Of a stretch of 64,000 bases of DNA, positions 27,759 through 32,055 are shown piece by piece. The stretch lies in the NCBI GenBank assembly GCA_934393265.1, contig CAKRQL010000006.1, forward strand, positions 45,191-109,190, written 5' to 3'. The notes below the pieces were generated by a model, which saw nothing but the letters and a program-made list of their open reading frames with translations, made no database searches and was not told where the DNA came from. Position 1 is the first letter of the stretch, and the number at the start of each line of letters is the position of its first letter. The translations under genes and the position numbers were made by a program. The stretch is from an uncultured Eubacteriales bacterium. Lineage in GTDB: Bacteria > Bacillota > Clostridia > Oscillospirales > CAG-272.

Positions 27759-28159
27759 TGTTGGTGTCCTTTTTGAGATTTATCACCTATATTATATCAG
27801 TTAACCCTTTTGTTTGTCAATAAATCGGCGAAAAAGATATAAAAAATATTTCTCCGCCGTGTAGTACCCGTTCCTGCCCCACCAAAGCTGTGCGGGACGT
27901 AAAAAAATATCGTTAAAAGCACCGCAAAAGGCACATTTTACCCCGAAAACCGCGTCACGAGCGCAATCTGACGAATAAATGTAAAAAAAGCAACATATAC
28001 AGGCGCCGCGGGAGAATGCCATAGACCCGCCGTAGGCGCATACATAGGTGAAAGCTCGCCATAAGGAGAATGTAAAAGTTATAGGATTGCGCAATGACGA
28101 ATGTAAAAAAACCAAAGCACGCCACGGTGATCTGCCAAAACGCACGTGACACAAACAAA

Positions 28160-28175
28160 TGTTTCATGTGAAACA
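28160..28175. promoter_or_regulatory. parS site (ParB binding), one central mismatch
   Basis: TGTTTCATGTGAAACA compared with consensus TGTTNCACGTGAAACA. Confidence 0.75.
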
Positions 28176-28299
28176 GACATCATAAACGCCGTTATGACGT
28201 CCTGCCGCCGAAAAAACTCGTATCAGGTGAAAAACATGGCTTTGCAGACCATAAATCTGCTCAAAAGACGCCAAGTGCCCCAAATGGTATTTATAATCA

Positions 28300-28900
28300 C
28301 TCAAATAATGTTAAATACGTCTCAAACAGTGTTAAATACGTCTAAACGGCGTCAAATGTCTCTCAAACAACGTCAAATGCGTCACGAAAATGCCAAAAGC
28401 CCCGAGCAGCGTCTAAATGCGTTGCGAAATATGCCAAAAGCCCCGAGCAGCGTCTAAATGCGTTGCGAAATATGCCAAAAGCCCTGAACAGCGCCCAAAT
28501 GCGTTACGAAATATGTCAAAAGCTCCAAACGACGTCCAGGTGCGTTGCGAAAGATGCTGAAAGCTCTGATGAACGGCGTTAAAAGCGCGGGCGGCGTCCA
28601 ATTGCGTTCAAAACAATCTCAAATACGTTCCAAGCTGAGCAAAAACTCTGCGCGGTGTCGGATTTGCTCCGATCGAATGTGTTTGAATGGACGTCGAAAC
28701 TACTGAATGGTATCAAACAACACCCCGATCAAATTCGTCCCGATTTTCGCCAAAAGACTTGAACGGCGTCAGATTTGCCCGCCAATTGCGTTCTAAGAGA
28801 CGCCGGAGGCCCAAAACGGTGTCAAATGCGTTCCAAGAGGCGTCAAAAGCTCCGAACGGCACCCGGAGTGCGGCAAGTAAGTCATAAAAGGCCGATATAA
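28300..28900. repeat. degenerate 41-bp tandem array (ATGCCAAAAGCCCCGAGCAGCGTCTAAATGCGTTGCGAAAT)
   Basis: Head-to-tail copies at 28390..28430 and 28431..28471 are identical; copies at 28472..28512 and 28513..28553 are diverged. Flanks decay into CAAATGCGT / AAAAGC-containing units out to about 28300 and 28900. Confidence 0.85.
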
Positions 28901-28929
28901 CTGCCAAAACGCAGATAATCGACATTACA

Positions 28930-29330
28930 GAGCCGCAAGCACTTAAAGACCACAAGGCACATCAAGAGTTTACAAACCGCCCGGATAGCTTACAAGCGGA
29001 TTTGAGTAACCCGCAGTTTGCTTAAGAGCCCACAAACCGCTTTTTATAGCCTGCAAGCCACCCCGGTGAGCTTATAAGCTGCTTTGAATAACCCGTGGCT
29101 CGCTTAAAAGCCAGCAAAAACACTGCGAAACAGTTCCGAGGTCGTTTAAGAGCCTACAAGTCGCTTGAGTGCTTAGTAAGTCGCTTTGAATAGCACCTAT
29201 AAGTCGCTTTGGACGCCTGAAAGCTGTCTGAGCAGCACGCAAGTCGCTTTGAATGGAGCCAATAGGCCACTCCGACGAGCTTAAAAGTTGCTTTGAGTGG
29301 AGCCTATAAACCATTTTAGGGTCCAAAACC
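28930..29330. repeat. degenerate ~21-bp periodic array (TA(C/T)AAGTCGCTTTGAAT-type units)
   Basis: Successive 20-24-bp units include TAAGTCGCTTTGAATAGCACC, TATAAGTCGCTTTGGACGCC, CAAGTCGCTTTGAATGGAGCC and TTAAAAGTTGCTTTGAGTGGAGCC. Confidence 0.7.
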
Positions 29331-29395
29331 CGCGCAAAGTGGAGATGCAGACTGAATGTGCATTACTTTTTCGGCGAAAACATCCAAAAAAACAA

Positions 29396-29411
29396 TGTTT
29401 CACATGAAACA
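29396..29411. promoter_or_regulatory. parS site, one central mismatch (reverse orientation of the 28160 variant)
   Basis: TGTTTCACATGAAACA. Confidence 0.75.
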
Positions 29412-29654
29412 CTACTCTAAACCGGCGCAACGTGCACTTACTCTGCATATATTGAGGGAGAATGAATGAAAAAACAAAATAACAGGCAAAACAAGGAAAA
29501 TGTCTGGTAGAAAGATAAGCAAAAAACAATAAAACCGGAAGAAAAGGCGGCGGAAAGTGAAAAAAACAAGCGAAGAGAAAGAAAATACGTGGAAGTGGAC
29601 GCTGTGAACCTGCTGTAATAGCCAAGGTGCGTCGATTATCGTCAAAACAGCGAA

Positions 29655-29670
29655 TGTTTCATGTGAAACA
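29655..29670. promoter_or_regulatory. parS site, one central mismatch
   Basis: TGTTTCATGTGAAACA. Confidence 0.75.
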
Positions 29671-29757
29671 ATTATAATAAGCCACTACCTCGGCGACAAA
29701 AAGAATGTTTGTCGCAAAATAACCGGAACGCCTCCTGCCCCGGCTTAAAACTTGCAA

Positions 29758-29773
29758 TGTTTCACGTGAAACA
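29758..29773. promoter_or_regulatory. parS site, perfect palindromic consensus
   Basis: TGTTTCACGTGAAACA. Confidence 0.85.
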
Positions 29774-29798
29774 CAAAAAAATGCCGTCAAAACTGCGC

Positions 29799-29814
29799 TG
29801 TTTCACATGAAACA
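29799..29814. promoter_or_regulatory. parS site, one central mismatch
   Basis: TGTTTCACATGAAACA, 25 bp from the perfect site. Confidence 0.75.
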
Positions 29815-30180
29815 ACAGCAATTCACTAAAAAAGCGGGAAAACCAAGCATAAAAAGTTATTAATGCGCCAGGTGAATGGAAGAACGAACGAAGCTTCAAT
29901 CAAAAACAAGGAGAAATAGGTCAAAAAACGCTTATATAAGCCAAAATAAAAGTAAAAAGGCGCGGGAGAGTGAAATTAATGGTTTGCAAGGTGCAAAAAC
30001 GGGTCTATACAAAGCGAAATGCCCTCAAAACGCCCTCGAAGCGCCCCAAATCCGCGTACAAGCAAGAGTATTAGAGACAATCAGAGACGTGTTCAAAGCA
30101 GTTTTGCTGTGGCAAGAGCGCTTTTTGGGCTGTTATAAGCCAATTCTTACTGCAATGAAGTTGCTTTGAACCCCAACAAT

Positions 30181-30395
30181 GCGGGATTTTGTTGCCCCGG
30201 GGTGATTTTGAACCATAAAAAGGCGTGATTTTGCTGTCGCAGGGCGATTTTGAGCCATGAAAAAATGGAATTTCGCTGTCACAGGATAGTTTTAAGCCAT
30301 AAATAAGCTATAAAGAGGCAGAATTTGCTGGTGCAAAGGCGTTTTGAACTATAATAAGGCTATGCTACGAGACTGTTTTGAGCCTCAAAAGAACG
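30181..30395. repeat. degenerate ~42-bp tandem array (GATTTTGCTGTCGCAGGGCGATTTTGAGCCATGAAAAA-type)
   Basis: Five successive units each contain paired GATTTTG / GTTTTGA half-sites about 21 bp apart. Confidence 0.7.
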
Positions 30396-30399
30396 ATTT

Positions 30400-30930
30400 T
30401 TTTGTTTTTTCAGAAGCAAAGTAAAGCATTTTGGACTCGTGTTTACCTCGTAAACGTACTTTTAAGTGACTTTCATGGTAATTTACGGCTGATTTTTAGC
30501 GCTTTTTTACAGAGATTAAGCCACTTTGCGACTTTATAAGGCACTTTTGCGCATATTCGAGAGCTTTTTTTGCCCGCTTTTACAAGTTTTAACCTCGTAC
30601 AGCTTTTTCCCTGAGATTTTTTTGGGATTCAGCTCTGTTTTTTGAGGATATTGCGGCAAAATCCGGTGTTTCGAGCCTGGATATTTGCTTTTTGAAGCTT
30701 TTTCTTCGCGTTTTTGCGGTTTAATTGCGTCGTTTTGCGTATTTTGCCGTGTTTTTTTATTTATGCGTTTTATCGCGTTTTTGTTTTTTGCGTTTTTGCC
30801 CCTTTCTTAAAAAGTTGCCGTTTTTCATTAAAAGCTCTCTTTTTTATTGAATATTGCATAATTATTGCTGCTGCGTTTCTCTCGGGCTATTTATGCGTTT
30901 TATGCAGCCGGTTTTTGTAAAATTTACGTG
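30400..30930. repeat. T-rich low-complexity block of GCGTTTTTG / GCTTTTT-type short repeats
   Basis: Hand count for 30721..30780 gives T=34, A=6. Units such as TTGCGTCGTTTTGCGTATTTTGCCG and TATGCGTTTTATCGCGTTTTTG recur, and TTTATGCGTTTTAT occurs at both 30760 and 30890. Confidence 0.65.
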
Positions 30931-31184
30931 TAATTTATACGAATTGAAAATTTGTAAACCCGAAAAATCAATGATAAGCAGCTCAAAAGCCGCGATATTT
31001 TTGCGACATTTCGTGATATGTTCGTAATAAATACGAAATATTTACATTGCAAAAATTGCTGTGAAGTTAAGCTTTGACCCTTGACGGATATATGCTTTTT
31101 CGCGCTTTGCGCGCGCTATCAATTTCAATAATTCTGCCGTTATTTCTTGTGCGAGGAAGTATTTTTATTAAAACGCCATTTTTC

Positions 31185-31193
31185 TGTGGAAAA
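31185..31193. promoter_or_regulatory. isolated DnaA-box-like 9-mer
   Basis: TGTGGAAAA. It is the only such 9-mer I found inside the 4.3-kb non-coding region. Confidence 0.3.
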
Positions 31194-31547
31194 CTACCCT
31201 GAAGTGTGATAAAATATATCATAAAAGACTGACAACCCGGCAAACGGTCGAAGAAACTGCATACTTGTATGATCGGATATATCGGGAAACGGCACCGACA
31301 AATGCTTATAAAACGGGGGACACGGATTGTCGTAGTTGCCCCCACCCGCCGCACTTATCGCAGTTGCCACGCCTCCCGCCATATTTATACTATACTTGTT
31401 GGGACTCTCCGCCGCACTTATCGCAAGTTGCCGCGCCTCCCTGCTCTATTTGTGTCGTGCTTGTTGGGACTCTCGTGCTTGTGCTTGCGGGACTTGCCGG
31501 GCCTGCCGGAGGCATAGTTGATTAAGCGCATTAAGAGAAGAGACGTT

Positions 31548-31670
31548 TTTTCGGCGTTTCGGCATTTTGACATTCCGGCGTTCCGACGTTCTGATGTTCC
31601 GACGCTCTGATATGCCGACGTTCTGGCGTTCTGATATTATGACGTTTTCCCGTTCTGCCGTTCTGACAGG
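31548..31670. repeat. CGTTC(T/C)GA(N) microsatellite-like repeat
   Basis: About 11 successive 8-11-bp units (CGTTCCGA, CGTTCTGAT, CGCTCTGAT, CGTTCTGG, CGTTCTGAC and similar). Confidence 0.7.
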
Positions 31671-31908
31671 CTTCGACACTTGACTTTGCGCGGCGGTTCC
31701 AGGTTATCGCCCGGAAAGCTGCCGTGCTTTGCCCGAAAGTGTATAGCTTATTCTATGAGCACGCTGAAAGGTCAATAAATGCAATACCGCAACACAAAAA
31801 AATACTGCAAATATTTTGATTTTCGCCAAAACTGCTTTATGAGGCGCGATGGAGTATGAGGCGGACGGGTATTGCATGAATACCGCAACCATTCTGTAAT
31901 TTTCGCCC

Positions 31909-32010
31909 GTTACATAAAGCCGGACTTCCATATAGAGTAAAAGTTACATAAAGCCGGACTTCTATATAGAGTAAAAGTTACATAAAATCGGGCTTTGATA
32001 TAAAGTAAAA
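31909..32010. repeat. 3 x 34-bp tandem repeat (GTTACATAAAGCCGGACTTCCATATAGAGTAAAA)
   Basis: Copies at 31909..31942, 31943..31976 (1 mismatch) and 31977..32010 (diverged). The array ends 45 bp upstream of the 32056 ATG. Confidence 0.85.
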
Positions 32011-32055
32011 ATAAACAGGTAAAAACAAACAAAAAAGCAGGGAAGACCGAAGAAA

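Follow-up and report, generated by a model that had tools for sequence, protein, structure and literature searches.

Here, we focus on the interval 27759–32055 of a 64-kb stretch of DNA (the window) from an uncultured spore-forming gut Clostridium, and on the parS sites and helically phased A/T tracts that it contains. The window is an origin-proximal region with a coding-DNA GC content of about 0.57, and the interval separates two oppositely oriented sets of genes. Those on the minus strand, as identified with Pfam, are RNase J, gyrA, gyrB, recF, dnaN, dnaA, spoVAEB, spoVAD, spoVAC, parB and parA; those on the plus strand, from 32056 onwards, are a histidine phosphatase (HisPhos), GDPD, RlmL, SpoIIE, an RHS-repeat protein, rnf genes, RNase Y and a GH2 enzyme. 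The Pfam-identified genes bear out the strand flip at the interval (minus up to 27758, plus from 32056) that had been reported in a preliminary description of this DNA.

The two genes to the left of the interval encode a partition system, comprising a Soj-type ParA ATPase (parA, 26994..27758, minus strand; Pfam AAA_31, E = 3.7e-67) and a ParB with ParB_N and HTH_ParB domains (parB, 25493..26416, minus strand; E = 1.8e-35 and 3e-35). The interval contains five parS sites of no more than one mismatch each, at 28160, 29396, 29655, 29758 and 29799, against 0.01 expected by chance; these are the five sites of the preliminary description, and none occurs elsewhere in the window. The parS region is adjoined by parA and parB, and dnaA, dnaN and a cluster of DnaA boxes are found 7–9 kb off. 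As far as anatomy is concerned, the reading of 27759–32055 as the centromere region of the chromosome, in an expanded form, is well supported.

The interval had been described as free of open reading frames (ORFs), and it holds no wholly contained ORF longer than 117 amino acids (aa). Its ten longest ORFs have no Pfam match; just one of the 48 ORFs of at least 35 aa is intact in three conspecific strains, and that ORF is frameshifted in a sister species. A frameshift or stop was found in 120 of 144 ORF-by-strain checks, and GC content is flat over codon positions in all frames of the interval. Hidden genes or a pseudogene are ruled out by the Pfam result, the broken ORFs in strains and the flat codon-position GC. 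A tRNA scan and Rfam searches of the interval, at the gathering score and at E ≤ 1, returned nothing credible, and a plasmid, phage or mobile-element origin was rejected for want of a blastn match in PLSDB or INPHARED. The earlier sum of 6239 non-coding bp out of 8372 (23684..32055) is arithmetically right for the gene boundaries on which it was based, but the label ‘ORF-free’ does not suit every spacer counted, since 24499..25492 holds an ORF of 158 aa (24508–24984) that has no family match and is called by no assembly's gene caller.

Mis-assembly of the interval is ruled out by four independent metagenome assemblies, which reproduce it at 99.97–100% identity, one of them lacking a single 41-bp unit. 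The least certain detail is the copy number of the 41-bp array, and two short contigs stop inside this array at 28419. The interval is AT-rich relative to the genome, with a GC content of 0.43 versus 0.57.

Helical phasing of A/T tracts

The defining property of the interval, missed in the preliminary description, is the helical phasing of its A/T tracts and their registration with parS. Tracts of at least three bases recur every 10.24 bp, with a periodogram power of 47, whereas the 99th percentile of shuffles is about 11. The phased domain extends over about 3.2 kb (27759..31000) and is predicted to be intrinsically curved. Each 500-bp window between 27.75 and 31.0 kb has a power of 10.6–31 and a local best period of 10.2–10.55 bp, and the tracts keep a coherent phase over stretches of more than 1 kb. 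The median power outside the interval is 3.6, and a value above 12 is reached there only by the adjoining windows at 26.5–27.25 kb; the phased domain is the sole outlier in the 64 kb (Mann–Whitney p = 3e-10).

Under a wedge model, the 13 most curved 500-bp windows of the 64 kb all fall within 26.5–31.3 kb. The predicted ratio of end-to-end distance to contour length is 0.21–0.28 for 300-bp segments at 29.9–30.8 kb and 0.90 for controls, values that are good for relative comparison only. The tracts also have a polarity: on the plus strand they are A-runs as far as ~30.2 kb and T-runs from there on, and AT skew runs from +0.19 to +0.34 and then from −0.15 to −0.25. This A-to-T flip was rejected as a clade-wide trait, being genus-specific only.

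Registration with parS across the clade

A scan based on ParA, with one genome per species, recovered 80 loci, all from uncultured Clostridia of human or herbivore guts. A histidine-phosphatase gene is divergent from parA in 65 of the 80, and the gap between the two genes measures 0.2–6.5 kb (median 1.1 kb), is AT-rich, contains one to six parS sites and nearly always lacks substantial ORFs. The spacer between parA and parB is inflated too, with lengths of 16 bp to 3.2 kb. In its short form the gap is a compact cassette in which two TTGACTTT promoters enclose two to five parS sites at a spacing of about 40 bp; where the gap is expanded, the parS cluster keeps a roughly central position.

Periodicity is a feature of the gap in most of these species. 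The top spectral peak lies at 9.9–11.2 bp (median 10.2) and above all shuffles in the gaps of 41 of 62 species, and a power above 10 is reached by 40% of 300-bp gap windows, 55% of parA–parB spacer windows and 1% of windows elsewhere; the difference between the gap and elsewhere holds when GC content is matched (p down to 3e-53). The periods of tandem repeats in the gap concentrate at 10–11, 21–22, 39–43, 57–65 and 80–84 bp, and 65 of 109 repeat arrays deviate from a whole number of turns by no more than 0.15 turn (p = 1e-10).

The tracts are set in register with parS. Across 177 sites in 66 species, tract occupancy around the parS dyad rises and falls between 0.18 and 0.49 to a distance of 80 bp or more, with maxima at 4.9 + 10.25k bp from the dyad, an offset of half a turn. 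The power of this registration is 42, whereas 300 sets of random centres never exceeded 29, and masking of degenerate parS sites and half-sites does not abolish it. The offset does not change with gap size (short, medium or long), and it recurs when the window's species is taken by itself and when the species set is split in half. With each species counted as a single data point, the Rayleigh R is 0.62 (p = 8e-12) and 50 of the 66 species fall at 3.1–6.2 bp. The spacings from one parS to the next are weakly phased across the clade (Rayleigh p of about 1e-3 to 2e-4). As a control, we used 120 metagenome loci from unrelated bacteria with two perfect parS sites 15–45 bp apart and a ParA at most 50% identical to that of the window; these loci are not periodic (1% of windows above 10), nor are their tracts registered to parS (R = 0.11, p = 0.25).

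The sequences themselves are hardly shared. The only words common across the 66 species are parS, promoter hexamers and G/C-flanked A-tracts, with TTGACTTT and GTATAATA among the few that occur in 44–49 species. Alignment of relatives, which the preliminary description had suggested as a check, finds that the architecture (parS and periodicity) is conserved and the sequence is not. Its proposal of a binding array for an unknown protein is not supported, as even the closest other species (parA 94.7% identical) has different repeat units. An iteron or operator array with a conserved unit was rejected because the units differ in the closest species and no common word goes beyond the three kinds named above.

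Turnover among strains and sister lineages

Homologues of the phosphatase gave access to three conspecific strains and two sister lineages, in which the gap is 4282, 4247, 4317, 4443 and 5064 bp long, with spectral peaks at 10.21–10.56 bp and a power of 27–61. The gap of sister species L097 is largely unalignable, yet its power is 54. With a sister lineage whose parA is 92% identical, alignment is confined to the parA promoter, the parS cluster, a block of 430 bp (30838–31265) and a stretch of 150 bp (31769–31918; 69% identity). The divergence of four-fold sites in the flanking genes is 4.2%, that of non-tract bases in the gap is 11–13%, and that of tract bases is 5–6%.

All 14 strain indels of at least 5 bp in the phased domain measure 11, 20–22, 40–43, 83–84 or 102–103 bp, while those in the unphased right-hand part measure 5, 8, 32–35, 48 and 63 bp. 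Despite an indel turnover of about 400–500 bp in each of three pairwise strain comparisons, the gap stays at 4247–4443 bp in the strains and the nearest sister lineage, L094. This length homeostasis among strains is suggestive only, as paired alignment gaps may be artefacts.

Strain polymorphism gives no evidence of selection on the tracts. Tracts are twofold more conserved than other A/T positions, but this holds also for out-of-phase tracts and for the unphased part of the interval: in-phase tracts vary at 12.0% and out-of-phase control tracts at 13.8%, and in the unphased part tracts vary at 3.7% against 13.3% for other A/T positions. The same low variability in control tracts points to an effect of context and not to selection on curvature.

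Repeat families, promoters and the conserved block

The parS sites differ in their persistence. The first (TGTTTCATGTGAAACA, 28160..28175) is isolated, 340 bp upstream of the parA promoter, and is retained in all strains. The second (TGTTTCACATGAAACA, 29396..29411) is strain-specific and absent from L089, L090 and L092. The core cluster (29655..29814), made up of the sites at 29655, 29758 and 29799, is retained in strains and sister species, and its spacings of 103 and 41 bp correspond to 10 and 4 helical turns.

Where the preliminary description counted at least six repeat families, Tandem Repeats Finder and reading of the families give at least eight, with periods of 21, 41, ~21/42 (degenerate), 11, 42, 9–10/26, 65, 8/24 and 34 bp. 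From left to right, a 21-bp degenerate tandem repeat of two helical turns (28300..28383; four copies by Tandem Repeats Finder) leads into the 41-bp family of four turns (28366..28864), which has about five tandem and three degenerate copies and strain indels of 40, 41 and 102 bp. A degenerate ~21/42-bp family (D12) with the core YAAGYCGCTTTGA, read from the sequence, occupies 28900..29320 and has strain indels of 22, 42 and 83 bp. To the right of the core parS cluster lie a 42-bp family, again of four turns (30165..30400), and arrays of T-tracts spaced by about 10 bp (30400..30830), where the predicted curvature is strongest. The 41-bp unit has no match in JGI metagenomes.

A decayed tandem parS array, of the sopC kind, was rejected as a source of these repeats, there being no surplus of remnants at six or fewer mismatches (11 seen versus 11.8 in shuffles). 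At five or fewer mismatches, seven sites are found (the five good ones and two weak ones) versus 2.4 in shuffles.

The parA promoter (27791..27820, minus strand) is TTGACA-18-TATAAT with an upstream TG, matches at 12 of 12 positions and lies 33 bp from the gene. At the other end of the interval is a conserved non-coding block with TACGAA/TTCGTA motifs (30838..31265), 73% identical to L097 and 95.6% identical in strains. It includes a palindrome, TTCGTA-N5-TACGAA at about 31022–31038, whose compensatory changes are equally consistent with a DNA operator. A search for RNA covariation in the block found none, the RNAalifold covariation term being unfavourable on both strands; structured RNA was rejected for the interval on this ground and for lack of a known-family match. 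The block also contains a conserved extended −10 promoter (31187–31215, plus strand), with a DnaA box (31185–31193) overlapping the −35 element, and 30838–31186 is probably a regulatory region for some factor. With the parA promoter at the left and this rightward promoter at the right, the phased domain fills the gap between divergent promoters.

Downstream of the conserved promoter, the last ~0.85 kb of the interval (31.2–32.05 kb) is probably a transcribed leader. This putative leader of the HisPhos operon (31222..32055, plus strand) has unphased repeats of 65 bp (31346–31474), 8/24 bp (31549–31667) and 34 bp (31909–32010), and no periodicity was detected in it. Promoter-like and terminator-like sites are not enriched over shuffles in the interval.

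Neighbouring genes and the origin of replication

Phasing continues into the unusual 577-bp spacer between parA and parB (26417..26993), where A/T tracts are phased at about 10.6 bp. Directly upstream of parB, this spacer carries GTAAGTGTAA-type repeats of 10/16/26 bp (26424–26556), present in the closest species (L009, L089–L094) and absent in L097. It also carries an inverted pair of DnaA boxes, TTTTCCACA-N15-TGTGGAAAA (26845–26877), which is retained in every strain and sister species examined, even where the spacer otherwise differs; this suggests a DnaA-binding site between the par genes.

The densest cluster of DnaA boxes in the window, with seven boxes (at most two mismatches) in 230 bp at 20278–20505, lies between dnaA and dnaN and is likely to be oriC. 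If replication forks start there, the rightward fork would meet the transcription of dnaA, the spoVA genes and parBA (7.4 kb) head-on. In sister lineages L093/L094 and L097/L098 the gene after parB encodes a 1231-aa Flg_new/DUF6273 protein, which replaces spoVAC–spoVAD–dnaA; the linkage of dnaA and parAB in the window would therefore be a recent rearrangement. The 684-aa ‘dnaA’ ORF (20508–22562) overlaps spoVAEB (22130–22555; Pfam SpoVAC_SpoVAEB). Gene callers on other assemblies give a DnaA of 496–512 aa, so the true start of dnaA is probably near 22000–22050. Two GC-rich spacers nearby lack helical phasing: 23734–23910, between spoVAD and spoVAC, has a 95-bp direct repeat, and the repeat-rich 24499–25492 has seven copies of ACCGCAC, six of CGCGCCC, repeats of 21–25 bp and a GC skew of −0.175.

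On the plus strand, the histidine-phosphatase gene (32056..33852) has its Pfam His_Phos_1 domain at aa 383–572, preceded by an extension of 380 aa (32056–33201) that is of low complexity, rich in Ala, Gly, Thr and Ser, and encoded by DNA with 24-bp repeats. The extension is genus-specific: it stays in frame and varies in length among strains (proteins of 579–630 aa), and is absent in other species, where the histidine phosphatase consists of the ~210-aa domain alone. Further downstream, the RHS-repeat gene of about 1480 aa is split into ORFs of 571 and 910 aa at a run of four C (40630–40651, near 40637); strain L090 has five C at this run, and the split is either a frameshift or a sequencing error. 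Beyond the RHS gene, at 43–47 kb, is a low-GC stretch (0.36–0.42) of small ORFs without assignment, including one for a DUF6560 protein, which looks like a toxin-tip/immunity cassette region. At the other end of the window, 5000–8130 is a low-GC (0.46–0.49) plus-strand island with an AAA_14/DUF4143 ATPase gene (6667–8130), and may have been horizontally acquired.

A model for the expanded centromere

The reading that we favour, with a probability of about one half, is that the interval is an expanded centromere and that its curved arms, free of genes, hold the ParB partition complex as a scaffold. As far as sequence can show, this reading upholds the earlier proposal of a cis-acting organisation locus or ParB loading platform, in that the interval contains the only parS sites of the window, directly upstream of parAB and close to dnaA and dnaN, in an architecture that is conserved; the ‘binding array’ part of that proposal is not supported. 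The ancestral state would be a cassette of about 0.3 kb, with two to five parS sites ~40 bp apart between divergent promoters, which persists in many relatives. In the genus of the window, degenerate minisatellites with units of 10/11, 21 and 41/42 bp, all whole turns, would have inflated the inter-promoter space to 4.2–5.1 kb, and the outcome would be ~3.2 kb of tracts phased at ~10.25 bp and centred half a turn from each parS dyad.

The role of the curved, untranscribed arms might then be an architectural one, that of a scaffold on which the partition complex is built. The half-turn offset would turn the minor grooves of the A-tracts away from the side where helix–turn–helix (HTH) dimers contact parS, so that parS would face the convex outer side of the curve, with ParB sitting there; the geometry invoked, that of A-tract bending and of HTH dimers on a palindrome, is uncertain. 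According to the twin-domain model, divergent promoters push negative supercoils into the DNA between them. Curved DNA in this position could trap these supercoils and pin a plectoneme, and the pinned plectoneme would join the flanks, favouring ParB bridging, condensation and SMC loading. Gene-free arms of ~1.5–2 kb would further let ParB clamps slide without meeting transcription. The parS sites, the lack of coding, the phasing, the registration, the conservation over the clade and the sequence turnover are observations, whereas real curvature, ParB occupancy and any influence on supercoiling, condensation or SMC are inferred.

Plectoneme tips are pinned by curvature over ~70 bp (PMC6301789). 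ParB has no such pinning activity of its own, but supercoiling lowers the concentration at which it condenses DNA (PMC11602141). Centromeres with curved DNA are a known theme in plasmids (R1 parC, P1 parS with IHF, cenE), yeast and satellite DNA (PMC2241845). The sequence features described here suggest that DNA shape may be part of how this centromere works. The stronger claim, that shape is a selected, co-evolving component of the centromere and that parS in this clade is rotationally set on curved satellite arrays, which grow to kilobases as a dedicated platform without genes for ParB condensation and SMC loading, is advanced tentatively, at rather less than an even chance.

The main rival is a neutral, runaway expansion of minisatellites, with the parS sites, the two promoters and the block at 30.84–31.27 kb as the only functional parts. 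The short cassette would already have been A-tract-periodic, as is frequent in curved DNA upstream of promoters, and slippage or unequal exchange would have copied whole turns, and the periodicity with them, wherever extra DNA was harmless. Gap length varies 30-fold among species, the sequence is unalignable at 92–95% parA identity, strains vary in copy number by a 41-bp indel, and in-phase tracts are no better conserved than out-of-phase ones, as this view would have it. The excess of non-tract divergence (11–13% versus 4.2% at four-fold sites) also fits. Several points weigh against curved arms with a function: non-tract bases diverge about three times faster than flanking four-fold sites, as unconstrained minisatellite DNA would; slippage between tracts that were periodic to begin with could have produced the whole-turn indels as a side effect; strain polymorphism shows no sign of selection on phasing; and many relatives manage with 0.2–0.7 kb, so kilobase length is unnecessary. 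To these may be added that the 66 species are phylogenetically non-independent, that the A-to-T polarity flip is restricted to this genus, and that the curvature is a predicted one. Slippage alone, however, would not keep tracts and parS in register to at least 80 bp where the flanks are unalignable, and in all gap-size classes; the phase should be erased by indel turnover; and within species the length of the gap is nearly constant despite heavy turnover. Multi-kilobase non-coding DNA is usually purged in bacteria, yet here it recurs in several lineages with parS at its centre. Neutral expansion accounts for the turnover and the whole-turn indels but not readily for the registration, and we consider it less likely than a scaffold.

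A further reading makes the interval a landing pad for some nucleoid-associated protein with a preference for curved or AT-rich DNA, for example a silencer of the H-NS/Rok type or a protein that wraps DNA. In the wrapped DNA the A-tract minor grooves would face inward and parS would be exposed, and the inter-promoter zone would be silenced or insulated. The half-turn offset, which sets the recognition face of parS opposite the minor grooves of the tracts, is in keeping with this, as are the low GC content of the interval (0.43 against 0.57) and the tract period of ~10.2 bp, which is shorter than that of free B-DNA and typical of surface-wrapped DNA. There is no candidate protein, A-tracts are the only shared motif, and such a pad is compatible with a centromere scaffold instead of excluding it; as an explanation of its own it is unlikely. 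That the interval encodes long non-coding or leader RNAs is very unlikely: the conserved extended −10 promoter lies 840 bp upstream of the HisPhos start codon and the strand-asymmetric A/T composition could stem from transcription, but the interval has no Rfam match at E ≤ 1, the conserved block has no covariation, the parA promoter is just 33 bp from parA, promoter-like and terminator-like sites are at shuffle level, and sequence is not conserved in near relatives. Least credible of all is a replication origin or its unwinding element, as the orientation flip had been taken to imply. The flip does coincide with a minimum of cumulative GC skew at 28–29 kb, and 30.4–31.1 kb is AT-rich; nevertheless, DnaA boxes are depleted in the interval (7 versus 11.7 expected at two or fewer mismatches, with a single good box), they cluster 7 kb to the left and outside it at 20278–20505, and most relatives have no dnaA or dnaN within 10 kb while the character of the gap is unchanged.

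Comparison with known systems

An expanded centromere with scaffolding arms can be compared with several known systems. Like the chromosomal parS clusters beside parAB in Caulobacter, Myxococcus, Streptomyces and Corynebacterium, and Spo0J/parS in Bacillus, the locus has several TGTTNCACGTGAAACA 16-bp palindromes near parAB and the origin, and ParB has the ParB_N and HTH domains of chromosomal ParABS systems. It differs from chromosomal parS sites at large in that the 120 unrelated parS-pair loci have no phasing or registration. To our knowledge, the sites of known chromosomal clusters lie within or between ordinary genes, and none of these clusters is known to have kilobases of ORF-free DNA whose phased A/T-tract repeats are in register with parS; our literature search turned up no account of such an arrangement at chromosomal parS.

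Among plasmid centromeres, F sopC consists of 12 repeats of 43 bp and R1 parC of two sets of five 11-bp iterons, strongly curved and U-shaped with ParR. The bend that IHF makes at P1 parS can partly be replaced by intrinsic curvature in the right helical phase, and cenE of E. faecium is also bent. The core parS spacing of ~40 bp at the present locus is similar to that of sopC. However, the units of plasmid centromeres are protein-binding sites in arrays of 0.1–0.5 kb, whereas here most repeats have no parS or decayed parS, the sequence is unconserved and the array extends over 3 kb of a chromosome. Tandem units of whole turns, with bending or curvature as part of segrosome architecture, are features in common (PMC2241845).

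Eukaryotic centromeres offer a further likeness, by analogy only. Budding-yeast CDEII and curved satellite monomers are AT-rich, curved DNA in which shape and composition are conserved while the sequence evolves fast, according to the passages of PMC2241845 that cite Bechert et al. 1999, and the tandem satellites that flank eukaryotic centromeres likewise turn over quickly; they serve a nucleosome and a kinetochore, as opposed to ParB–CTP clamps. The periodic A/T clusters (PATCs) of C. elegans are also kilobase-sized and non-coding, with ~10-bp A/T clusters derived from minisatellites, curvature and a response to supercoiling (bioRxiv 10.64898/2026.08.08.743475), but they are reported as dispersed elements, in a eukaryotic chromatin-insulator setting with no specific binding site in register, whereas the present case is a single locus. 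Phased A-tracts are common upstream of bacterial promoters too, where the curved DNA typically measures tens to ~150 bp and is not registered to a centromere site; here the domain is 3 kb and spans the space between two divergent promoters.

In work on ParB and parS, the DNA beside the sites is regarded as a passive track along which CTP-gated sliding and bridging take place. In a clade of at least 66 species, parS is in fixed rotational register with phased tracts, and several lineages spend 3–6 kb of gene-free DNA on the arrangement, which makes it a testable idea that sequence-encoded curvature and supercoil trapping may help to nucleate the partition complex and load SMC; the locus offers a natural size series of one centromere, from 0.2 to 6.5 kb. 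Should the arrays prove neutral, they would still be striking self-propagating minisatellites of helical period in a bacterial genome. Should shape be selected, they would be a prokaryotic counterpart of eukaryotic centromeric satellites. Curved centromeres are known as a kind, and what appears to be new is the presence of phased satellite arrays around chromosomal parS: by this comparison the locus would be a bacterial centromere of conserved shape and unconserved sequence, a pattern that has so far come from plasmids and eukaryotes.

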